Source of the DNA: Burkholderiales bacterium
Lineage (GTDB): Bacteria > Pseudomonadota > Gammaproteobacteria > Burkholderiales > Burkholderiaceae_E
DNA: 40,222 nucleotides
Reading direction: 5' to 3'
NCBI GenBank assembly: GCA_046304115.1
Contig: JBKCEY010000429.1
Coordinates: 1-40,222, forward strand
This document shows positions 726 to 12,063 of this stretch, piece by piece; position 1 is the stretch's first letter; each line of letters starts with the position of its first letter. The notes under the pieces are model-generated. The model was not told where the DNA came from. It searched no databases and saw only the letters and a list, made by a program, of their open reading frames with translations. The position numbers and the translations under genes were made by a program.

Positions 726-821
726 GGCTAAGAGGCTAAGAGGCTAAGAGGCTAAGGGACTACGGGGCTACGGAGCTACGGAGCAACCGGGCTGATCGGC
801 TGATCGGCTGATCGGCTGATC
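726..821. repeat. Three abutting 8-bp tandem arrays: (GGCTAAGA)x4 at 726-757, (CTACGGRG)x3 at 760-783, (GGCTGATC)x4 at 790-821
   Basis: Read directly from the sequence. The arrays cover the last ~20 codons and stop codon of the monooxygenase ORF and most of the spacer before the DUF2783 gene. Confidence 0.9.
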
Positions 822-2571
822 GGTCGAGACGTCCGAGCGCGCGCTCGAGCGCACGCGCAATGGCCTCGGGATCGAGGCTGCGCCAGCGGGCGCAGACATG
901 CTGGTCGGGTCGCAGCAGCACGACGGTGCCGGATCGGGCCGCGCAACGCTCGCGCAGCAGACCCCGGGTGTCTTGCCAGAGGCCCGCGAGGAGCCCCCCA
1001 GGCAGGGCCTGGCCGTGTGCTTCGTTCAGTGGCTGATCTGCGCTCACGATGCGATGCACCCGCAGTTCGGGCAGACCCAGGTCGCTCAGGCGGCGGGCCA
1101 TCGCCTGCAGGGCCGCAGCGCCGGGCTGTGTGCCGTCCTCATCGAACACCAGCAGGGCGAATCCCTCACCTGAAAGGGCTCGCAGCCACCAGGTGGGCTG
1201 ACCCCGCGCATCAGTCAGGGGGGCATCGACACTGGGCGCGCCCGGACGCATGCCCGGGGCGGCGCAAGGTCCTGCGGCAGGCGGATCGGGCGTATTGGCA
1301 GGGCTGGTCTCCAGTACCGTCGGCACCGAGAGCCGGCCGCTGTTGACCAGTCGGCGGGCAAAGGGCTGTGTTGCGGCCAGTTCAAGCGTGGCGTCGCGCA
1401 GGGCTTTTGCTGCGGCGGACTTCGGGGTGATGAAGTCGGTGCTGCGGGTGGAGTTGAGAATGTTCTCGTCGGCTGCCACTTCGCGCTCAAGGGCCCAGTG
1501 ATCGAGTACGGCCTGCGAGGCCTGCCGATTGACCACCGCCGCCAGCCGCCAGGCCAGCGCGTCGGCGTCCTGGATGCCCGAGTTGGCGCCGCGCGCGCCA
1601 AAGGGCGAGACCTGATGGGCGCTGTCACCGGCAAACAGCACATGCCCGTGACGAAAGCGCTCCATGCGACGGCACTGGAAGGTGTAGACGCTGGTCCAGA
1701 CCAGTTCGAAGTCGCGATCGCCCATCATGGCGCGCAATCGAGGCAGTACGCGCTCTGGCTGACGCTCGAGCTCCGGGTCGGCATCCCAGCCCAACTGAAA
1801 ATCCACCCGCCAGACATTGTCGGCCTGCCGGTGCAGCAACACAGACTGCCCCGGATGAAAGGGCGGATCAAACCAGAACCACCGCTCGGTCGGATAGTCG
1901 GCCTTCATCAGGACATCGGCGATCAGGAATCGGTCATGAAAGACCTGACCGCGGCTCTCCAGTCCCATCATGCGGCGGGTTGGGCTGCGGGCACCATCAC
2001 AGGCGACGAGCCAGTCGCATTCGAGCCGATAGCTTCCCTCGGGTGTATCGATCCCGATCATGACCGATTCAGGACCCTGCTGAACTTCTGTGACCCGATG
2101 GGCCCAGCGCAGATCAAGCGCTGGCAGGGCCCGGGCCCGTTGCACCAGGATGTCCTCGAGGTGGTACTGCTGCAGGTTCACAAAGGCCGGCCGCTCATGA
2201 CCCGCCTCGGGCAGCAGATCGAAGTGATAGATCTCGCCTTCGCGAAGGAATACCCGCCCGCGGTTCCAGCTCACGCCGCGCGCCACCACCGGATCGGCGC
2301 ATCCCAGGCGATCCAGGATCTCGAGACTGCGCTTGGCGTAGCACACGGCGCGCGAGCCGGTGCTCACGGTGGTGTCATCATCAAGCACCACCACAGGCGT
2401 GCCGCGCTGGGCCAGGTCGATCGCCGTGCACAGCCCAACCGGGCCCGCCCCGATCACAACGACCGGATGGCGCACCGGCTGCAATGCATCCTGATCAGCA
2501 CTGCGCTGATACGGAAACGGTATCGGGTTCTGCATGAGGGTGTTTGTACAAAAAGGGACTCGACCAGCCAT
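760..2571 (-). CDS. FAD-dependent aromatic-ring monooxygenase (MhpA/PheA-TfdB-like hydroxylase)
   Basis: Has the Rossmann motif VVVIGAGPVGLCTAIDLAQRG and the FAD-binding motif FAGDSAH, with a ~590-aa two-domain architecture. A more likely start is the ATG at 2535 (MQNPIPF...). The C-terminal ~20 aa are repeat-derived. Confidence 0.85.
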   Translation of the reverse strand: MAGRVPFCTNTLMQNPIPFPYQRSADQDALQPVRHPVVVIGAGPVGLCTAIDLAQRGTPVVVLDDDTTVSTGSRAVCYAKRSLEILDRLGCADPVVARGVSWNRGRVFLREGEIYHFDLLPEAGHERPAFVNLQQYHLEDILVQRARALPALDLRWAHRVTEVQQGPESVMIGIDTPEGSYRLECDWLVACDGARSPTRRMMGLESRGQVFHDRFLIADVLMKADYPTERWFWFDPPFHPGQSVLLHRQADNVWRVDFQLGWDADPELERQPERVLPRLRAMMGDRDFELVWTSVYTFQCRRMERFRHGHVLFAGDSAHQVSPFGARGANSGIQDADALAWRLAAVVNRQASQAVLDHWALEREVAADENILNSTRSTDFITPKSAAAKALRDATLELAATQPFARRLVNSGRLSVPTVLETSPANTPDPPAAGPCAAPGMRPGAPSVDAPLTDARGQPTWWLRALSGEGFALLVFDEDGTQPGAAALQAMARRLSDLGLPELRVHRIVSADQPLNEAHGQALPGGLLAGLWQDTRGLLRERCAARSGTVVLLRPDQHVCARWRSLDPEAIARALERALGRLDRSADQPISRSARLLRSSVAP

Positions 2572-2636
2572 TATCGATGACCAGGGTTTGAATCTTGCCT
2601 GCAGCAGGGGGTGTCCCCGGCTTGGGATCCCTCCGG

Positions 2637-2720
2637 GGTCCTGTTCAATCGGAGTTCCCGTTCAATCCGCGGTCCCGTTGAATCCGTGGTCCCGTTCAAT
2701 CCGTGGTCCCGTTCAAGCGG
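2637..2720. repeat. Five tandem copies of a 17-bp unit (GGTCCCGTTCAATCCGT)
   Basis: Copies lie at 2637, 2654, 2671, 2688 and 2705 with 0-4 mismatches each. The array is intergenic, between the monooxygenase and the kinase-like gene. Confidence 0.9.
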
Positions 2721-2962
2721 AGGTCTCGCATGATGTTCTCGAACCTGCGACCCGACCATCCGGGTCAACCGCCCCGACCGAATCCCGATCGGCCAGGACC
2801 CTGGCCCTGGCCGTTTGAGCATCCTCAGTTCGATTGAATGGCCGAAGAATTAACCCTTAGGAGTTAATTTTGAGCGGATCAGACATGGATTACAGAGCAA
2901 TTTCTGACAAATGTTACAGAGTTGTGTTGAGATTATTGCCATCTCGTAGGAAGTCCATCTGA

Positions 2963-3679
2963 ATGAAGCCGAACAGGGGCCTGCAAGCCCCCGACCTCGC
3001 GTCCTCCGTACGCCATGACCTGCGCAATCCGCTCGGGGCCATTGCCCATTGGGTGCAACTGCTCGAGACGCCCGACCTCGATGCCGAACTGCGACAGCGG
3101 GCCCTGCAAGGCATCCGCACGGCAATCACTGAACAGCTCAACCAGATCGAGCAGCTGTCCGAACTGCTCGAGCAATCGAGCGAAGCCGACCCGGACGGCC
3201 CTCAGGTGTCGGTCTTGCCCCCAGCCCATCCGCGGGTCGACCTGTTCGACGTTCTGAATCAGATGGCTGAATCCATCCCTCCTGCCCTGCGCACGCGCCT
3301 TCAACGGCGAGACCAGCGGCCCGTTCGCTCCGCCCTCATTCATGCCGATGAATCCGCGCTCGTGCAGGCGCTGACCACGCTGGCCACGCTGGGGCTCAAG
3401 CAGTTGCTGGATCATGAGCAGCTTCTGCTTGGCCTTCAAACACCCGCGCCACTGGGCGCCTGCCGCATGGTCTTGCAAGTGCAGGTCGTGGGAGAGCCCA
3501 TCGAGCGGCCCTGGCGGATTCTGTCCGACACCGGCTCCGTGCGGGGCCTGGCCGTCATGCATGCGCGTTCTGTGCTGAGCCTGCATCGGGCGGATGTGCG
3601 CATCGTCACAACCGATCATGCCGACGACACGGTGATCCTTGACTTTCCGCTGATTGAACTGGCCTTTGATGAAACCTGA
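2963..3679 (+). CDS. Sensor-less histidine-kinase-like protein (HisKA H-box intact, HATPase boxes degenerate)
   Basis: The H-box SVRHDLRNPLGAI lies at residues ~15-27, and an AGGAAG SD sits 9 nt upstream of the ATG. The C-terminal half aligns by eye to the HATPase_c fold but lacks the N-box Asn and the DxGxG motif. No TM or sensor domain. The stop lies 1 nt before the activator ATG. Confidence 0.7.
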   Translation: MKPNRGLQAPDLASSVRHDLRNPLGAIAHWVQLLETPDLDAELRQRALQGIRTAITEQLNQIEQLSELLEQSSEADPDGPQVSVLPPAHPRVDLFDVLNQMAESIPPALRTRLQRRDQRPVRSALIHADESALVQALTTLATLGLKQLLDHEQLLLGLQTPAPLGACRMVLQVQVVGEPIERPWRILSDTGSVRGLAVMHARSVLSLHRADVRIVTTDHADDTVILDFPLIELAFDET

Positions 3680-3680
3680 T

Positions 3681-5033
3681 ATGCGCCATGTGCTGATCGT
3701 TGACGACGAAACCAATTCCGCTCAGGCCCTCAGTGCACTGGTCCAGGAGCAGGGCTATTCCACGGCGGTGGCCTCCTCACTGCGTGAAGCCCGCCAGCAG
3801 CTCATGCTGATGCCGGCGCAGGCAGTCATTCTTGATCTGCATCTGCCCGACGGCAACGGATTTTCCCTGCTCGAAGATGCTGCGCTGGTTGCAGGCGCCG
3901 AGATCATTCTGGTGACCGGTCATGCCAGCATCGAGTCTTCGGTACGCGCGCTGCGCCTGGGTGCGGTGGACTATCTCGTCAAGCCCGTGCAACCGGCGCA
4001 ACTCAAGCAGGTGCTGCAGCGCCTGGGTCAGGGTCGTGAGGTGAGGGCAGATATCCAGAAGCGAGCGGCTGAAGTGCCGCAATCAGGACAGTTTGGACGT
4101 CTGATCGGCGAATCTGCCGCCATGCAGCGGGTCTATGCGCAGATCGCCCGGGTGGCGCCCACCGCGGTCAATGTCTTCATCGTGGGGGAGTCCGGAACGG
4201 GTAAGGAACTGGTCGCCCAGACCCTTCATGAACTGTCGCGCCGGCGGCGCGCCCCCTTGCTGTCGGTCAATTGCGGCGCGATTTCGGCGCAGTTGATCGA
4301 AAGCGAACTCTTTGGTCACGAAAAGGGCAGCTTCACCGGGGCCAGCCGTCAGCATCGGGGATATTTCGAAAGGGCTGATGGCGGCACGCTCTTCCTGGAT
4401 GAGATCACCGAGATGCCCATGGATCTGCAGGTCAAGCTGCTGCGGGTGCTCGAGACCGGTGCATTCACCCGGGTAGGTTCTGAGGATCCGATCCAGACCG
4501 ATGTGCGAATCCTGGCCGCCACCAACCGCAATCCTCACGAAGCCGTCAGTGCCGGTCGCTTGCGCGAGGATCTGTTCTATCGGCTCGATGTCTTCGAGAT
4601 CGCACTGCCTGCGCTGCGCGCGCGTGCGGGTGATGCGACCCTGCTGGCCAAGACCTTCCTGCGCGAAGTCAATGAACTCGAAGGGCTCGAGTTGTCGTTC
4701 AGCGAGGGTGCCCTGAAGGCGCTTGAGACCTATAGCTGGCCGGGCAATGTCAGGGAGCTGCGCAATGTGGTGTGCCGATCGGCCCTGATGGCTGATGGCA
4801 AACGGATCGAAGAGTTGGCCTTGCCCGAAGTGCCGAACACTGCAGCACATGCGGTGGGCAACGGGACATTGAAGTCATCGGTTGGATCGACGATTGCTCA
4901 AGCCGAGCGTGACCTGATCCTGGCTACGCTCGAGCATTGTCATGGCCTGCGTGAACCCACTGCCGAGATGCTGGGCATCAGCCTCAAGACCCTCTACAAC
5001 CGCCTGCGGGACTACGGTCAGAGCCCGGCCTGA
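3681..5033 (+). CDS. Sigma-54-dependent response regulator (NtrC family enhancer-binding protein)
   Basis: REC domain (LIVDDE...DLHLPDG), AAA+ Walker A GESGTGKE, sigma-54 contact loop present as GSFTGA, and a C-terminal Fis-type HTH ([20 protein letters not shown]). Alternative starts are the ATG at 3669 and the TTG at 3654. Confidence 0.9.
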
Positions 5034-5110
5034 TTGGCCTGCAGGGCTGAGCTCAGCCCCCCTCCTGATCGGCCGGCAGGGCTGAGCTCAGAGCCCCACC
5101 TGATTAGCCC
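5018..5110. repeat. About 2.7 tandem copies of a 35-bp unit spanning the 3' ends of the two convergent genes
   Basis: Copies at 5018-5052 and 5053-5087 share 29/35 identity, and a partial copy starts at 5088. Each unit contains the palindrome GGCTGAGCTCAGCC or a near-copy. Copy 1 carries the activator stop codon and copy 3 carries the rpoN stop codon. Confidence 0.8.
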
Positions 5111-6695
5111 CAGCCATGCGACGCATCTCGACCGGAGGAATCCGTAACGCGTCGCGATACTTCGATACCGTGCGACGAGCCACCTGGATGCCGCGCTGCT
5201 CGAGCATTCGCGCCAGCCGGATATCGGACAGCGGAGATTGCGGATCTTCGGCCTGGACCAGCTCCTGGATGACTGCACGAACTGCGGTGGCGGAGCAGGG
5301 CGTGCCGGCTGCGGTGCTCACATGACTGCCAAAAAACCGCTTGAATTCCAGTAGCCCGCGCGGCGTAGCCATGTACTTGCGGCTGGTCACGCGCGAAACG
5401 GTTGATTCATGCATGCCGGTGCGGGCGGCGATTTCGGCCAGCGTAAGCGGACGCATGGCCATCTCGCCATAGTCGAAATAGCGACTCTGGTGGTCGATGA
5501 TCGCCTGAGCCACCTGCTGAATCGTCTGAAAACGCTGGTGCACGTTGCGTACGAGCCAGCGCGCTTCCTTCATGCATTGCGCAATCTGGCCGTCAGGTTC
5601 GCGCGTACCCCGCATGAGGGCGATGTTGCGACGGTGGATGCGCACCTTCGGGACGACTTCCGGGTTGATGAAGGCCGTCCAGCGACCCGCCTGGCGTCGC
5701 ACGATGACATCGGCAACCACGAATTGCGGTGATTCGCTGTCGAAGGCACTGCCGGGTCGGGGAACAAGACTGCGCAGCAGCTGTACCGCCGCCTGCAGCT
5801 CAGCGGCGGTGCAGCCCAGAGCCCTCTGGATCGCGTTGAAATCATGCTGCGCAAGTTCGCGCAGGTGAAGCCGCACAATGGTCATTGCCAGCGCCGTCAT
5901 GTTCTGGCTCTGTGTCTGTGTCTGTGTCTGTGTCGGGCGGCCTGCCCGTTCCTGCAACTGCAGCAGCAGACATTCAGCGACATCGCGTGCGCCCACGCCC
6001 AGAGGATCCATGGATTGCACATGACGCAGCGCGATCCGAAGCTCGTCTTCAGCAGGCGCGGGATCCGTTGGACAGAAGGCTGCGATGTCCTCAAGCGATG
6101 TGCGCAGGTAGCCCGCCTCATCGATGGCCTCGATCACGGTTTCGACCAGCAGCCGATCGCGCGCCGAGAGTCTGAGCACACCGGCCTGTTCGCGCAGATG
6201 CTCGCGAAGCGATGGGGCCCGTCCCACCTGACTCCAGGCCTCAGAGGCATCCTCATCCGGCCTGGAGCCGGCATTGCCTGAGTCACCGGTGTCGGCCCAC
6301 AGCAGGTCGTCCTGCCGGCCTGAGTCAGATCCTTCGTCGTTGAACGCGGTGTCGGCCTCGGCTCGGCTGGCTGCTTCATCGTTGGCGGGCCCGGAAAACG
6401 CATCGCCGGACCCCTCGCTTTCTGCGCCGGAATCAGACCCGTCATGAAGCTCGGACGCATGCTGCGACGACAGTGATGACAGCGAGCCCGCCTCGGCCTG
6501 AGAGCCCTCCTCGGACACCCGAGTCTGGCCATCCTGCGGGGTATCGAGTCGCTCGAGGAAAGGGTTGTCTCCAACCACCTCATCCACCTGTTGTGCAAAT
6601 TCAAGATTCGACAGCTGCAGCAACTGGATCGCACGCTGCAGCAAAGGGGTCATGGTCAGGTGGGTCGACTGACGCAGGGACAGGCTCATGCTCAT
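5088..6695 (-). CDS. rpoN: RNA polymerase sigma-54 factor RpoN
   Basis: 535 aa with region I LRQSTHLTMTPLLQRAIQLLQLSNLEF, a long acidic region II, and a C-terminal RpoN box ARRTVSKYR. An AAGGTGA SD precedes the ATG. It is not in the usual lptB-rpoN-hpf context within this window. Confidence 0.93.
   Translation of the reverse strand: MSMSLSLRQSTHLTMTPLLQRAIQLLQLSNLEFAQQVDEVVGDNPFLERLDTPQDGQTRVSEEGSQAEAGSLSSLSSQHASELHDGSDSGAESEGSGDAFSGPANDEAASRAEADTAFNDEGSDSGRQDDLLWADTGDSGNAGSRPDEDASEAWSQVGRAPSLREHLREQAGVLRLSARDRLLVETVIEAIDEAGYLRTSLEDIAAFCPTDPAPAEDELRIALRHVQSMDPLGVGARDVAECLLLQLQERAGRPTQTQTQTQSQNMTALAMTIVRLHLRELAQHDFNAIQRALGCTAAELQAAVQLLRSLVPRPGSAFDSESPQFVVADVIVRRQAGRWTAFINPEVVPKVRIHRRNIALMRGTREPDGQIAQCMKEARWLVRNVHQRFQTIQQVAQAIIDHQSRYFDYGEMAMRPLTLAEIAARTGMHESTVSRVTSRKYMATPRGLLEFKRFFGSHVSTAAGTPCSATAVRAVIQELVQAEDPQSPLSDIRLARMLEQRGIQVARRTVSKYRDALRIPPVEMRRMAGANQVGL
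5909..5934. repeat. In-frame hexanucleotide repeat (TCTGTG)x4+ inside rpoN, encoding (TQ)n
   Basis: Read directly. On the minus strand it encodes TQTQTQTQSQ in the linker before region III. Confidence 0.85.
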
Positions 6696-6753
6696 GGGTT
6701 CACCTTGGGAGTCCGTAGTGGCATCGCTTCACTGCGAGCGTCTGCACTGAGCC

Positions 6754-6768
6754 GCAAGCTTCGTGCCA
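6754..6768 (-). promoter_or_regulatory. Sigma-54 (-24/-12) promoter upstream of rpoN
   Basis: The minus strand reads TGGCACG-AAGC-TTGC-G, a full match to TGGCACG-N4-TTGC with exact GG-N10-GC spacing. The predicted start is near 6742, about 47 nt upstream of the rpoN ATG at 6695. Confidence 0.7.
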
Positions 6769-6856
6769 TGGGCCTGGATGGACTGAAAAGCGAGGAAACA
6801 TCCCGTGGCCTCGGTCGCTTGCTCAGTGACGGCTTCGGTAATTCGGGTGTGCCGAT

Positions 6857-6871
6857 CGGTCAGACTGACCG
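6857..6871. promoter_or_regulatory. Perfect dyad CGGTCAG-A-CTGACCG, candidate activator UAS
   Basis: A 7+1+7 palindrome centred about 97 bp upstream of the -24 GG of the rpoN promoter, the usual distance for EBP sites. A 1-nt centre makes an RNA hairpin role unlikely. Confidence 0.3.
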
Positions 6872-6881
6872 GCCTGCGGTT

Positions 6882-7550
6882 TCAGTGTCGGGTCGGTGCC
6901 TGGATCGACGCTGTGATTCGGGTGCCGGTTTGTGGCTGCGACTTGATCCGAAGATGGCCCTGCACCGCGCGCAGCCTGGCTCGCATGCCCCGGATGCCTT
7001 CATGTCCGGCGCCTACCCGATCCGTCCGGAATCCGTGACCGTCATCCGTGATGACCAGCCGGATGCGGCCTTTCACGCACTCGAGTTTCAGTGAGGCCTT
7101 GCGGGCACCGGAGTGTCGGTGCAGATTGGTCAGACACTCCTGGGCGCACCGATAAAGCGCCAGAGCCGCCATGCCATCGAGCTGGGCCTGCGGACTGACC
7201 GAGAGGGTCATTTCGCCCGAAAAGCGCGAGGCGAAATCGCGCGCCACGGCCTCGATGGCGATGGGCAGGCCAAACTGCTCGAGCGCGCTGGGATGCAGGC
7301 CCTGAACGACCCGGCGCAGCTCGACCTGACCGTCCTTGAGCAGGGTCTCCAGCCGCTGCAGCCGACCGGTCCAATCGGTTCGTGAGTGACTGCGGTGGGT
7401 TCGCAGCCAGGCCACATCCAGACGGGCGGCCGTGAGGACACTGCCGAGTTCGTCATGCAGCTCCTGTGCGAGCTGGCTGCGTAAGGCGTCGCTCGACTCG
7501 GGTGCCGATGCTGCGGTCGGCATCGTGCTGTGTCGGATTGCAGAGGGCAT
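6882..7550 (-). CDS. Sensor-less histidine kinase, HisKA_3/NarX-type core (DHp + HATPase_c)
   Basis: H-box LAQELHDELGSVL, N-box ECLTNLHRHS, G-box ITDDGHGF, no TM segments. The ORF track starts at a TTG at 7682, but the first in-frame ATG is at 7550. The 44 aa in between are low-complexity and overlap two sigma-54 promoter motifs. Confidence 0.8.
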   Translation of the reverse strand: MPSAIRHSTMPTAASAPESSDALRSQLAQELHDELGSVLTAARLDVAWLRTHRSHSRTDWTGRLQRLETLLKDGQVELRRVVQGLHPSALEQFGLPIAIEAVARDFASRFSGEMTLSVSPQAQLDGMAALALYRCAQECLTNLHRHSGARKASLKLECVKGRIRLVITDDGHGFRTDRVGAGHEGIRGMRARLRAVQGHLRIKSQPQTGTRITASIQAPTRH

Positions 7551-7604
7551 GTGTGCGACCGGCCGGTCGACACTGCGTGAGTGTGTGGGAGTGGGACGCT
7601 GACT

Positions 7605-7619
7605 GGGCACGGCATTTGC
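7605..7619 (+). promoter_or_regulatory. Sigma-54 (-24/-12) promoter facing the NarL-type regulator gene
   Basis: The plus strand reads gGGCACG-GCAT-TTGC-C with exact spacing. The predicted start is near 7631, about 115 nt upstream of the ATG at 7745. Confidence 0.55.
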
Positions 7620-7663
7620 CTCCTGATCGCTGGAACACGCCTGTTGGCGGCCTGTGGGCTCAG

Positions 7664-7678
7664 GCAAACGCCATGCCT
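7664..7678 (-). promoter_or_regulatory. Sigma-54 (-24/-12) promoter facing the HisKA_3 kinase gene
   Basis: The minus strand reads aGGCATG-GCGT-TTGC-C with exact spacing. The predicted start is near 7652, about 100 nt upstream of the ATG at 7550. Confidence 0.5.
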
Positions 7679-7744
7679 GCAACGCCTCAACCTGCGTGTT
7701 GACCTGAGATCTCGCAGTCCCCTTTCATCGCCAGGAGAGCTTCC

Positions 7745-8401
7745 ATGATGACCAGTCCATCGAGCAGAAAGATCCGTGTCGCCATCTGCGACGACCATCC
7801 CATCGTACGCGCGGGTTTCCGCCAGTTTCTTGACGGACAATCCGACATGGATGGTGTGCGTGAAGTCGAAAACGGGCGCGAGGCGCTCGAGCTTGTGCGC
7901 AACGATCTGTGCGATGTCCTGTTGCTCGATATCTCCATGCCGGGGCAGAACGGGGTGGACGTCCTGCGGGCCGTCAAGCTGCGCCGGCCTGACCTGCCGG
8001 TGCTGATGCTCTCGGGCTTTCCTGAGCAGCACTACGCCTTGCAGATGCTCAAGCTCGGGGCCAGCGGTTATCTGCCCAAGGACTGTGAGCCGACCGATCT
8101 GCTCAGGGCGGTACGCTCGGTGGCTCAGGGCCGTCGGTTCGTGACGGAGGCTGTCGGCGATCTGCTCGCCAATGGTCTGGGCGGCAACAATGACGAACCC
8201 CCCCACGCCCAGCTGTCCGATCGGGAGTTGCAGGTCTTTCTGCGCCTGGCCAAGGGCGAATCGGTCACTGCGATCGCCAATGTGCTCAATCTGAGCTTCA
8301 AGACCATCAGCACCTATCGATCGCGGGTCCTCGAGAAGCTCAATCTTCGGTCCAACAGCGATGTGACCTACTACGCCATGAAGAACGGGCTGATCGAGTA
8401 A
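7745..8401 (+). CDS. NarL/FixJ-family response regulator (REC + LuxR-type HTH)
   Basis: REC domain (VAICDDHPIVRAG...LLLDISMPG...K) plus HTH LSDRELQVFLRLAKGESVTAIANVLNLSFKTISTYRSRVLEKL. An AGGAGA SD lies 8 nt upstream. Confidence 0.9.
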   Translation: MMTSPSSRKIRVAICDDHPIVRAGFRQFLDGQSDMDGVREVENGREALELVRNDLCDVLLLDISMPGQNGVDVLRAVKLRRPDLPVLMLSGFPEQHYALQMLKLGASGYLPKDCEPTDLLRAVRSVAQGRRFVTEAVGDLLANGLGGNNDEPPHAQLSDRELQVFLRLAKGESVTAIANVLNLSFKTISTYRSRVLEKLNLRSNSDVTYYAMKNGLIE

Positions 8402-8408
8402 CCGTCGC

Positions 8409-10769
8409 TCAGAACATCTGGTCGCGCACGCGATCGCCCGTGGCGCCGCTGCCCAGGCCTTCCTCGGTCAGCCCGAGGGAGGCGACGCCTTTGCCTGGCA
8501 CCGATTCTGCGAAGTACCACTCGCCGTTGACCTGAACCACCCCGGGTGGTGGGTCCGGTGTGCGGTCGGGCACGCCCTTGAGCGCGACTTCCATGGCGTC
8601 GATCCAGATGGGCAGTGCAAGACCGCCCCCGGTCTCGCGATCGCCGAGCTTGCGGGGTTTGTCATGACCGACCCAGGCCACGCCGGCCAGACCGGGCTGG
8701 TAGCCCGCAAACCACGCGTCATGCGAATCGTTGGTGGTGCCGGTCTTGCCCGCCAGATCCTGGCGTTTCAGGCGAAGGGCCGCGGCTGCGGTGCCCTTGC
8801 GAACGACATCGCGCAGCAGGCTGTCCATGATGAAGGCATTACGGGCATCGATCACGCGGTTGGCCTCGTCGCCTGAGCGCACCGGCTGGGCCTGCGCAAT
8901 GACCTTGCCACTGGAATCCGTGATCCGCGCAATGAGGTAGGGCTGCACCCGATAGCCCCCATTGGCGAAGACCGACATTGCGCCCACCATCTGCCATGGC
9001 GTGACCGAGCCTGCGCCCAGGGCCATCGTGAGGTAGGGGGGGTGGCGGGCTGCATCAAAACCAAAGCGCGTGATGTAGTCCTGGGTGTACTGCGTTCCGA
9101 TCGCCTGCAGCAGGCGGATCGAGATCATGTTCTTGGACCGGGCCAGGCCCGCACGCAGGGTCATCGGACCGTCAAACTTGCCGTCGTAGTTCTTGGGCTC
9201 CCAGACCTGGCCGCCGGTGACCGAGGCACTCACGATCACAGGCGCGTCGTTGACCAGGGTTGAGGGCGTGAACCCGCGCTCGAGTGCCGCCGAGTACACA
9301 AAGGGCTTGAAGCTCGAGCCGGGCTGGCGCCAGGCCTGCGTGACCCGATTGAACTTGTTGCGATTGAAGTCAAAGCCACCCACCATCGACCGCACGGACC
9401 CATCGTCGGTACTCGCCGAAACATAGGCAGCCTGCACTTCTGGAAGCTGAGTGATCTCCCATCCCTTGGCGCTCTGGCTGATGCGCACCACGGCCCCGGG
9501 CGATAGACGCTTTGCTGGCTGAGCCTTGTCGGACAGCCAGCCGGCAACGAATTTCAGTCCATCGCCTTCGATATCAACGATCTGGCCGCGACTGCGGCTC
9601 ACAGTGACCTTGCGTGGGCTGGCCTCCAGCACCACGGCCGGGTTGAACTCGTCGATGTCACCCGCTTCGAGCAGCGCTTCCTCGATCTTTTCTTCGCGCC
9701 GGGCCCGGTTGGCGGGCAGTTCGATGCGAGCCTCCGGGCCCCGATAGCCATAGCGCCGGTCATAGCCGATCACGGCCCGGTTGAGGGCCTGGGTGGCGGC
9801 GCGCTGATCGGCCGCGCGCAGGGTGGTGTAGACATTGAGCCCGGCAACATAAGCCTCTTCCCGGAACTGCTCGATGGTCAGTTGTCGCGCGAGTTCTGCG
9901 GCGTAGGGCGCACGCACGGCAAACTCGCTGCGTTCGGGCTGCAGCCGCAGGGGCTCGACCAGTGCGGCCTGGTAGAGCCGGTCATTGAGGTAGCCCAGAG
10001 CATTCATGCGACCCAGGATGTATTCCTGGCGGATGCGGGCCCGTTTGGGATTGACCACCGGGTTGTAGGCCGAGGGCGCCTTGGGCAGGCCCGCGAGCAT
10101 GGCGGCTTCGGCTGCGCTGATCTGGGCGAGGGGCTTGCCGAAATAGATCTGCGCCGCAGAGGCAAAACCATAGGCACGCTGGCCCAGGAAGATCTGGTTG
10201 ATGTAGATCTCGAGTATCTGCTCCTTGGTCAGGGCCTGCTCGATGCGGATCGACAGCAGGATCTCGTAGATCTTGCGGCTGTAGCTGCGTTCGTTCGACA
10301 AAAAGAAATTGCGAGCGAGCTGCATGGTGATGGTGCTTGCGCCCTGGGCCTTGCCTCCCGCCGCGACATTGGCGAGGGCAGCACGCACGATGCCCAGGAT
10401 GTCAACACCGTGGTGCTCGAAGAACCGGTCGTCCTCGGCGGCGAGGATGGCCTGCTTCATGACGTCAGGCACCTCCTGGATGCGCACCACGCTGCGGCGT
10501 TCTTCGCCGAATTCTCCAATCAGGACGCCATCGGACGTGAAGATGCGAAGTGGCATCTTGGGCCGGTAGTCGGTAATGACATCGAGCGAGGGCAGTTTGT
10601 CCCAGGCCAGCACGGCTGTCAGGGCCAGCGCCAGACCGACGGTGCTGACCAGCACGGCCGGAATCAGCACCAGCCAGCCGATCAGGCCCAGACCCCGCTG
10701 GCGCCTTCGCCCCTGCTCAACGCCGCGGGGCCGGCTCGAAGGCCGCAGCCAATCGGACAGGGCAGACAT
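8409..10769 (-). CDS. mrcA: Penicillin-binding protein 1A (bifunctional transglycosylase/transpeptidase)
   Basis: N-terminal TM anchor, GT51 motifs EDDRFFEHHG and GASTITMQ, and transpeptidase motifs SSFKP, SKN and KTGTT. Confidence 0.93.
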   Translation of the reverse strand: MSALSDWLRPSSRPRGVEQGRRRQRGLGLIGWLVLIPAVLVSTVGLALALTAVLAWDKLPSLDVITDYRPKMPLRIFTSDGVLIGEFGEERRSVVRIQEVPDVMKQAILAAEDDRFFEHHGVDILGIVRAALANVAAGGKAQGASTITMQLARNFFLSNERSYSRKIYEILLSIRIEQALTKEQILEIYINQIFLGQRAYGFASAAQIYFGKPLAQISAAEAAMLAGLPKAPSAYNPVVNPKRARIRQEYILGRMNALGYLNDRLYQAALVEPLRLQPERSEFAVRAPYAAELARQLTIEQFREEAYVAGLNVYTTLRAADQRAATQALNRAVIGYDRRYGYRGPEARIELPANRARREEKIEEALLEAGDIDEFNPAVVLEASPRKVTVSRSRGQIVDIEGDGLKFVAGWLSDKAQPAKRLSPGAVVRISQSAKGWEITQLPEVQAAYVSASTDDGSVRSMVGGFDFNRNKFNRVTQAWRQPGSSFKPFVYSAALERGFTPSTLVNDAPVIVSASVTGGQVWEPKNYDGKFDGPMTLRAGLARSKNMISIRLLQAIGTQYTQDYITRFGFDAARHPPYLTMALGAGSVTPWQMVGAMSVFANGGYRVQPYLIARITDSSGKVIAQAQPVRSGDEANRVIDARNAFIMDSLLRDVVRKGTAAAALRLKRQDLAGKTGTTNDSHDAWFAGYQPGLAGVAWVGHDKPRKLGDRETGGGLALPIWIDAMEVALKGVPDRTPDPPPGVVQVNGEWYFAESVPGKGVASLGLTEEGLGSGATGDRVRDQMF

Positions 10770-10980
10770 GATCAGACGCCAGGAGCATTCAGGGGGAGCC
10801 GAGTATACCGGCCGATGTCATGGGCGGTGTCGGCACGTGCCCCCAGTCGACCATCGGCGAAGCGGCGCGACGAACGGGCATCGACAGGGGGATCGGCGGG
10901 ACGCGCACGGGTTCGGCGGATTCCCGGAAAGCGTTACAGTGTCGTCAAGATTGATTGAATCCACCCTTGAAGCCGATGCC

Positions 10981-12063
10981 ATGGGCCTGAGTCTGCCCGG
11001 ATTGTCCCGTTCGCCTGCGCCCGCGCTGCTGGGTGTCGACCTCAGCACCCATCGGGTCAAGGTGGTCGAGCTCGCGCCCGAGGGCCGCGATCGGCTGCGG
11101 CTGGAGCGTTATGCGATCGAGCCGATCGAGCCGGGTGCCATCGTGGACGGGCAGATCGAAAAACCCGAGGCGGTCGCCGCAGCGTTGTCGCGGGCCATTG
11201 TTCGCAGTGGCAGCAAGGCCCGAAATGCGGCGCTCGCCCTGCCTTCATCGGCCGTGATCGCCAAGCGCATCCTGCTTCCGGCGGGCCTGAGCGACGAGGA
11301 TTACGAAGTTCAGGTCGAGTCCGAAGCCAGTCAGTACATTCCCTTTGCGATGGATGAGGTCAACCTGGATTTCCAGGTGCTCGGACCCGCCGAGGGGTCG
11401 AGCGAGGATGTCGAGGTGCTGCTTGCGGCCTCGCGGCGCGAGCGCGTCGAGGACCGGGTGGCACTGGCTGAAATGGCTGGCCTCAAACCCATGGTGATCG
11501 ATGTCGAGCCCTTTGCGGCCCGCCGCGTGATTGACCGGATCTGTACCTTTTTGCCCGACCAGGGCGCCGGTCAGGTGCTGGCTGTTTTCGACATGGGGCA
11601 TGCCAACACCAGCCTGATGGTCCTGCTCGATGGCAAGACCGTCTTCGAGCGAGAGCAGCCCTTCGGGGGTGAGTTGCTCACCCAGGAGATTGCCCGTCAC
11701 TTCGGTCTCAGCCTGGAGGAGGCCGAAGCGCGCAAGCGTGCAGCCGATCTGCCGGAGTCCTATGGTGATGATGTTCTGGCACCGTTTCTCGAGCAAGCGG
11801 CCTCCGAGGTTGCGCGCGCCATTCAGTTGCTCACCACCTCCACGCCCCACAACCATGTCGACCGCATCTTCCTGGCGGGCGGGGTGGCCGTGACTGCGGG
11901 GCTGGCCGAGGCCGTGGCCGACCGTACCCAGGTGGCTACCGAGATTCTCAGCCCCTTCCAGGGCATGGCCCTGTCCGATGCTTCGCGCCGCAAGAACCTC
12001 GAGCAGGATGCGCCTGCCCTGATGGTGGCCTGCGGTCTGGCCATGCGCCGGTTCAATCCCTGA
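10981..12063 (+). CDS. pilM: Type IV pilus assembly protein PilM
   Basis: Actin-like ATPase fold protein of 360 aa starting MGLSLPGLSR...LGVDLSTHRVKVVEL, first gene of pilMNOPQ. The track ORF from 10576 is an upstream over-extension. Confidence 0.9.
   Translation: MGLSLPGLSRSPAPALLGVDLSTHRVKVVELAPEGRDRLRLERYAIEPIEPGAIVDGQIEKPEAVAAALSRAIVRSGSKARNAALALPSSAVIAKRILLPAGLSDEDYEVQVESEASQYIPFAMDEVNLDFQVLGPAEGSSEDVEVLLAASRRERVEDRVALAEMAGLKPMVIDVEPFAARRVIDRICTFLPDQGAGQVLAVFDMGHANTSLMVLLDGKTVFEREQPFGGELLTQEIARHFGLSLEEAEARKRAADLPESYGDDVLAPFLEQAASEVARAIQLLTTSTPHNHVDRIFLAGGVAVTAGLAEAVADRTQVATEILSPFQGMALSDASRRKNLEQDAPALMVACGLAMRRFNP

Follow-up and report, generated by a model that had tools for sequence, protein, structure and literature searches.

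In this study, we analysed a 40,222-nucleotide stretch of DNA (the window, by which we mean this whole stretch) from an uncultured freshwater Burkholderiales bacterium and propose, with a probability of about 75%, that a specialised second sigma-54 gene in it, of the RpoN2 type, is expressed from a functional sigma-54-dependent promoter, which would be gated by an activator and started by a housekeeping sigma-54. The gene lies in what we read as an accessory regulatory cassette, where it is accompanied by genes for a LuxR-type regulator, a HisKA_3 kinase, an NtrC-type activator and a HisKA protein. The features of the region are the following.

760..2511, minus strand: FAD monooxygenase
2963..3679, plus strand: HisKA-only protein, with an H-box but no ATPase domain detected; its gene runs into the beginning of that for the activator
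3669..5033, plus strand: NtrC-family enhancer-binding response regulator (receiver, AAA+ sigma-54 interaction and Fis-type HTH domains), convergent with rpoN
5034..5087, no strand assigned: DNA separating the stops of the convergent activator and rpoN genes; its repeated GGGCTGAGCTCAGCCC palindromes are predicted to form a hairpin
5088..6695, minus strand: paralog of rpoN (535 aa); the three sigma-54 domains are all present (Pfam, TIGR02395), and the RpoN box is ARRTVSKYRD
6696..6742, minus strand: predicted 47-nt leader with the ribosome-binding site AAGGTGA, its start taken from the usual -24/-12 spacing
6754..6768, minus strand: -24/-12 sigma-54-type promoter element TGGCACGAAGCTTGC before rpoN, from sequence and conservation in related loci
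6857..6871, no strand assigned: perfect palindrome CGGTCAGTCTGACCG, ~90-105 nt upstream of the -24 element and unique in the window; candidate activator (enhancer) site
6882..7610, minus strand: short histidine kinase of the HisKA_3 type, 242 aa; its gene is the next one upstream of rpoN
7605..7620, plus strand: sigma-54-type site GGGCACGGCATTTGCC directed toward the LuxR-type regulator gene and overlapping the kinase start codon, conserved in 11/11 loci
7664..7679, minus strand: sigma-54-type site AGGCATGGCGTTTGCC directed toward the kinase gene and possibly on into rpoN, from conservation
7745..8401, plus strand: LuxR/NarL-type response regulator, divergent from the kinase
8409..10769, minus strand: PBP1A
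from ~10.6 kb, plus strand: pilMNOPQ, aroK and aroB

The minus strand in front of rpoN reads cccaTGGCACGAAGCTTGCGgctc, within which TGGCACGAAGCTTGC occupies 6768..6754 (-). Its GG and GC dinucleotides are exactly 10 nt apart, the spacing of the consensus TGGCACG-N4-TTGCW, and read one base further (TGGCACGAAGCTTGCG, 6768..6753 (-)) the site matches seven of the eight further consensus positions, the last base being G rather than A or T. The original prediction had described a full-consensus match with exact spacing, and this stands, the base after TTGC being its only departure from TTGCW. It had also placed the motif between genes, correctly oriented, with a start about 47 nt before the rpoN ATG. 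The motif does lie on the rpoN strand in the 186-nt gap between the stop of the HisKA_3 kinase gene at 6882 and the rpoN ATG at 6695, and if G6766 is taken as -24, transcription is predicted to begin at ~6742, which leaves a leader of 47 nt. The GAGGTGAAcccATG region of this leader is kept in the related loci L005, L006 and L007. An exact TGGCAC-N5-TTGC occurs a single time in the 40-kb window, at the rpoN promoter site; shuffled sequences held a mean of 0.14 such matches per 40 kb, with at least one in 11 of 100 shuffles. From the shuffle mean, our own arithmetic puts the chance of an exact match in the 186-nt gap on the right strand at ~3e-4. Looser matches (two mismatches or fewer) number 56 in the window against 59 expected, which is no enrichment over chance, and the case therefore rests on the position of the motif and on its conservation.

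A -24/-12 site was found upstream of rpoN in 22/22 distinct related loci in which RpoN is 42-100% identical, at 55-112 nt upstream, a count that overstates the number of independent observations since the loci share descent. Every one of these loci (RpoN at least 42% identical) has GG-N10-GC together with 5-8 of the eight further consensus positions. The set includes the rpoN2 locus of the Ralstonia solanacearum megaplasmid, which was fetched separately; a metagenome scan contributed 80 loci to the comparison. Absence from orthologous loci had been named beforehand as grounds for abandoning the promoter, and the site proved to be present throughout. Two loci from GTDB metagenome-assembled genomes (MAGs), with RpoN 67-68% identical, retain TGGCATGAAGATTGC and TGGCACAGACCTTGC, and loci reached through protein homologs (RpoN 71%, 55% and 53% identical) retain the site as well. 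A three-way alignment leaves an invariant block, TGGCA..A..TTGCG, inside a gap that is 65% identical, and the invariant bases are essentially the consensus positions. What precedes rpoN varies between loci (a kinase gene, one for a BON protein or one for a hybrid kinase), and the site is retained in each case. For comparison, the background density predicts ~0.02 such sites per 60-nt stretch, and of ~60 other rpoN loci, in which RpoN is 41% identical or less, only about five show a site with a score of 6 or more within 300 nt upstream of the gene; lptB stands directly upstream of rpoN, the housekeeping arrangement, in 30 of these ~60. That the positions contacted by sigma-54 are kept across spacers that can no longer be aligned is strong evidence of function, and the motif before rpoN is very probably a working sigma-54-type promoter. 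Separately, a good -24/-12-like site also occurs in a minority of housekeeping, lptB-linked loci: in L035 (~1568) and L056 (~4931) it lies close to the end of lptB, 70-88 nt before rpoN (TGGCACAGTATTTGCG and TGGCACAGAAAATGCA). The window contig is found in metagenomes (ENA ERZ27247987, JGI 3300032092 and others), and every named relative is a MAG assigned to Burkholderiaceae or Burkholderiales; no cultured isolate with the cassette of the close clade was found among them.

The gene behind this promoter is a non-housekeeping paralog of the RpoN2 type that is not linked to lptB. Its product has the Pfam domains PF00309 (AID), PF04963 (CBD) and PF04552 (DBD), and scores 414 bits against TIGR02395 (cut-off 277) and 490 against NF009118 (cut-off 396). 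The gene upstream of rpoN is never lptB, either in the window, where the HisKA_3 kinase takes that place, or throughout the clade. In a neighbour-joining tree of 84 sequences, built without support values, the window clade and Ralstonia RpoN2 stand apart from all lptB-linked RpoN, in one group that also holds the more distant metagenomic L025, L026, L028 and L029 as well as L030; over its full length, the window RpoN is 44% identical to Ralstonia RpoN2. A housekeeping rpoN, with the order lptB-rpoN-hpf-ptsN, was considered and rejected, the context having no lptB, hpf or ptsN. The coding sequence contains a hexanucleotide repeat (TCTGTG, 4.3 copies, 5909..5934) encoding TQTQTQTQ, and residues ~50-160 form a long acidic, low-complexity region II; together these make the protein ~55 residues longer than its 50-55% identical relatives.

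A sigma-54 promoter requires an enhancer-binding protein, and, as originally predicted, one is encoded next door: the NtrC-family response regulator at 3669..5033 (+). In every clade locus long enough to include it, this gene is convergent with rpoN, and its product is 62-85% identical across the clade. It is also 55% identical, over 448 residues that include the receiver and the HTH, to the activator beside Ralstonia rpoN2; the protein compared is the annotated activator beside rpoN_2 of strain MAFF 301560, and the label RSp1667 follows the table in PMC4676750. Upstream of the promoter, the palindrome CGGTCAGTCTGACCG is identical in L007, half retained in L005 and replaced by the related CTGACCGGTCAG in L006. 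In relatives with RpoN 50-55% identical, the distance between a conserved GGCAGAAAtTTCCGT and the promoter downstream of it is constant at 88-90 nt, as expected of an enhancer site, and GGAAAAGCTGCC lies closer in. When GGCAGAAAtTTCCGT was searched for elsewhere in the loci of these relatives, it was essentially confined to the region upstream of rpoN. The elements are not alike between sub-clades, and we regard the palindrome at 6857..6871 as a candidate activator site.

The remaining genes of the cassette are largely two-component genes. The HisKA-only protein, presumed to be a phosphotransfer partner, has no detectable ATPase domain in the window or in relatives (for example L008 9527..10297), which suggests that it acts in a relay as a phosphotransfer protein or a phosphatase. 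An extra single-domain receiver and a hybrid kinase are encoded in some relatives. The LuxR-type regulator, compared between the window (7745..8401 (+)) and L005-L041, is 86-94% identical, with RpoN at 50-71% and the partner kinase at 37-74%, and is under unusually strong constraint for a single component of the cassette. The cassette appears to have been inserted between the FAD monooxygenase/cyaY/lysA side and the PBP1A-pilM side. More distant cassettes and the Ralstonia rpoN2 locus contain small stress-type genes (BON, DUF883, Transgly_assoc and DUF1328) that are missing in the window, for instance at L008 5385..5735 and 10729..10998, L010 3194..3930 and 11239..11508, and L092 3989..4479. 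Some of these genes in relatives are preceded by sigma-54-type sites, which hints that the paralog may control an envelope or stationary-phase-like stress set.

Several non-coding features of the region were also noted. A 35-bp repeat (5018..5109, 2.6 copies) with GGGCTGAGCTCAGCCC palindromes extends over the ends of both the activator gene and rpoN. Its predicted fold is a long hairpin (-50 kcal/mol, z -2.1) that lacks a T-run, and the gap at 5034..5087 is probably a two-way terminator, judging from this structure. In the gap between the divergent FAD monooxygenase and HisKA/activator genes, a 17-bp tandem repeat (TCCGAGGTCCCGTTCAA, 5.5 copies, 2632..2725) is followed by an AT-rich stretch at 2840..2960; the repeat was considered as a possible array for a regulator and set aside, as it is not conserved in L007. 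Simple scans, which are weak as negative evidence, gave no sigma-70-like promoters or terminator-like sites in 4900..8500, and no sigma-70-type promoters or intrinsic terminators at 2400..3100, upstream of the activator operon. With no terminator-like site between the kinase gene and rpoN, read-through into rpoN is possible. Rfam and tRNA scans of the window returned no matches.

The promoter before rpoN is accompanied by other sigma-54-type sites. Two that stand face to face occupy the 134 bp separating the kinase gene from that of the LuxR-type regulator, as they do this gap in 11/11 loci with both genes, with an outer span of 75-79 bp (for example L005 2907..2980, L006 37..110 and L010 2282..2360). 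Within these sites, GGCA(C/T) and TTGC are fixed and the spacer bases vary, which is the pattern of sigma-54 sites and not that of a simple palindromic operator. The regulator-directed GGGCAC overlaps the start codon of the kinase gene (GTGCCC), and the ribosome-binding site of the kinase gene overlaps the -12 element of the same site. Neither the window nor L007 showed a sigma-54 site before the HisKA/activator operon; in more distant relatives, such sites precede this operon as well as a Transgly_assoc gene. The -24 element has G or A as its first base in 26/26 of the module promoters (T in 0/26) versus T in 20/22 of the rpoN promoters, counts again drawn from loci that share descent. This difference, TGGCAC before rpoN and GGGCAC or AGGCAC in the module, hints that the rpoN promoter may have a different reader. 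The RpoN box differs too: at residues ~506-515 (window ~5150..5180, -), the clade has ARRTVSKYRD and all 61 other sequences have ARRTVAKYRE. One clade member, L024, has Ala in the box, and its neighbours carry TGGCAC.

One possible explanation for these observations is an orthogonal sigma-54, in which the change of the box from ARRTVAKYRE to ARRTVSKYRD would make a purine, instead of T, the preferred first base of the -24 element. In that case, the paralog would read its own GGGCAC/AGGCAC module, and the housekeeping sigma-54 would launch the system through TGGCAC. The targets in the module would be the face-to-face pair, the activator operon and the stress-protein genes of relatives. The correlation is real, but it is drawn from observations that share descent, and we consider this proposal speculative, with a modest chance of being correct. 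If true, uncultured freshwater Burkholderiales would have a sigma-54 cascade of two tiers whose promoter codes are partly separate.

The closest known system is the second rpoN of Ralstonia solanacearum GMI1000, rpoN2 (RSp1671), which belongs to the same bacterial order and, like the window gene, is not linked to lptB. In a scan of the GMI1000 genome with the same consensus, Ray et al. (2015) reported TGGCACAGCCTTTGCA 63 nt upstream of rpoN2 (PMC4371752), and we read TGGCACAGCCTTTGCA at the same place in strain MAFF 301560. Both genes have a full-consensus -24/-12 site ~60 nt upstream of the start, and both have an NtrC-type response-regulator activator nearby, the two proteins being 55% identical. 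DUF883 genes for small stress-type membrane proteins occur in the vicinity of Ralstonia rpoN2 as they do in the more distant relatives of the window. Expression of rpoN2 is abolished in an rpoN1 mutant, and the function of rpoN2 is still called enigmatic (PMC4371752). Lundgren et al. (2015) listed rpoN2 as a predicted target of the neighbouring activators RSp1667 and RSp1668, and reported that RpoN2 expressed from a plasmid is able to work with at least one canonical sigma-54 promoter system, that for growth on C4-dicarboxylates (PMC4676750). The two loci also differ. Ralstonia rpoN2 is on the megaplasmid and its activator gene is divergent and 2.7 kb upstream, whereas that of the window is convergent and adjacent; the Ralstonia locus has a second, receiver-less activator and lacks the pair of LuxR-type regulator and HisKA_3 kinase; and the box of Ralstonia RpoN2 is the canonical ARRTVAKYR, in contrast to ARRTVSKYRD in the window. 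Dependence on rpoN1 is an observation from Ralstonia only. It had been stated that the gene context here differs from that of the precedents named, which were only the symbiotic or nif-linked copies of alpha-Proteobacteria, a view that does not survive the comparison with Ralstonia rpoN2, where the promoter has the same position and the activator is orthologous. The kind of circuit is already known, and known in Burkholderiales; the window adds a well-conserved member.

Our model of this circuit is as follows. RNA polymerase with a sigma-54 would sit on TGGCAC-N5-TTGC as a closed complex and would fire only upon ATP hydrolysis by a phosphorylated enhancer-binding protein, for which the likeliest candidate is the NtrC-family response regulator of the convergent gene, when bound at upstream repeats. 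Since a sigma-54 promoter cannot fire without sigma-54, some must already be present when the first transcripts are made. With a kinase promoter that is itself of the sigma-54 type and no sigma-70-like promoter detected, the simplest and most probable source would be a putative lptB-linked housekeeping RpoN encoded elsewhere in the genome, as in Ralstonia. Once made, the paralog may read its own promoter, in a positive feedback, as well as the GGGCAC-type promoters of the neighbouring two-component genes. Given that Ralstonia RpoN2 can use a canonical promoter system, feedback is mechanistically possible. The acting sigma-54, the acting activator, the enhancer site and any feedback are what we infer from sequence and from these comparisons.

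This model has to be weighed against other readings of the same element. That the motif is a functionless chance match is hardly credible: at least one exact match does turn up in 11% of shuffled 40-kb windows, but position, orientation and conservation in 22 loci, down to 42% protein identity and across spacers that are otherwise unalignable, speak against coincidence, and on the strength of that conservation we rejected it. Another reading is pure positive autoregulation, the circuit of the original prediction, in which the paralog would be the only sigma-54, or the only reader of this promoter, and would amplify itself in a switch-like manner from a leaky or read-through basal level. A promoter and an activator are indeed present and conserved, no sigma-70-like promoter was found nearby, the lack of a detected terminator between the kinase gene and rpoN offers a source of basal read-through, and Ralstonia RpoN2 is able to use a canonical promoter system. 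The gene, however, lacks the housekeeping lptB context and groups with a known second copy, and expression of that copy in Ralstonia requires rpoN1. Moreover, the upstream kinase promoter is itself of the sigma-54 type, so that read-through would not solve the bootstrap problem, and the rpoN promoter has TGGCAC, whereas the presumed targets of the paralog have GGGCAC or AGGCAC. We therefore keep from the original prediction the sigma-54-type promoter and the adjacent activator, and consider autoregulation as it was stated unlikely; feedback of the paralog on its own promoter is possible as an addition to a start by the housekeeping sigma-54.

A further reading is that the site serves negative autoregulation or mere occupancy, with a stable closed complex hindering transcription that arrives from upstream and no initiation at the site itself. 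Negative autoregulation has reportedly been described for housekeeping copies of rpoN, in Klebsiella, Pseudomonas putida and Bradyrhizobium (rpoN2). Read-through from the kinase gene could supply the transcription to be hindered, no terminator having been found, and a few canonical lptB-linked loci (L035 and L056) also have a -24/-12-like site. Against this, the window site is a full-consensus match at a typical promoter distance from the ATG, downstream of conserved elements at a fixed distance; it is retained where the upstream gene changes; and loss of rpoN1 in Ralstonia abolishes rather than raises rpoN2 expression. We consider this reading very doubtful, and favour an activator-gated promoter started by the housekeeping sigma-54.

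Sigma-54-dependent expression of additional rpoN copies is also found outside Burkholderiales. Rhizobium etli rpoN2 and the nifU2-rpoN genes of Rhodobacter capsulatus are NifA-dependent copies in the alpha-Proteobacteria. A passage of PMC3538637 describes Mesorhizobium loti rpoN2 as a further symbiotic or nif-linked copy that depends on NifA. Like the window gene, these copies are second rpoN genes with a sigma-54 promoter and a dedicated enhancer-binding protein; unlike it, they belong to another bacterial class and another RpoN lineage, and their activator is NifA rather than of the NtrC type. The idea that the window gene is itself a NifA-linked or symbiotic copy was rejected, as its neighbours (two-component genes, FAD monooxygenase, PBP1A and pilMNOPQ) include no nif or fix genes. 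The window activator has a receiver domain and scores below the NifA cut-off. Older work by Poggio is said to have shown that RpoN paralogs of Cereibacter (Rhodobacter) sphaeroides discriminate between promoters. Such discrimination would parallel the split between TGGCAC and GGGCAC, which in the window is a correlation between sequences. C. sphaeroides encodes RpoN1-4, and RpoN3, paired with AprX, illustrates a sigma-54 paralog that has an activator to itself and controls a small dedicated regulon (PMC11999139). A 2025 survey found predicted sigma-54 promoters enriched upstream of rpoN in several classes, including beta-Proteobacteria, and read this as autoregulation (PMC12316311). That survey is statistical and based on position-specific matrices; it does not include the window clade or conservation followed ortholog by ortholog, and it does not separate paralogs from housekeeping copies. 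In the review PMC8657755, the phrases searched gave no match on rpoN2 promoters.

Altogether, this analysis indicates that a sigma-54 promoter before a second rpoN gene, together with a dedicated activator, is no quirk of Ralstonia. The cassette is ancient and conserved, and has spread through Burkholderiales, including abundant uncultured freshwater lineages. Its conserved partners offer candidates for the regulon and the signals of Ralstonia rpoN2, namely the LuxR-type regulator, the HisKA_3 kinase, the HisKA phosphotransfer protein and the BON, DUF883 and Transgly_assoc genes of relatives. For the design of circuits, a sigma cascade under the control of an ATP-dependent activator is a tight switch, and feedback or a shifted promoter code would matter to how such a switch behaves, if either is true.
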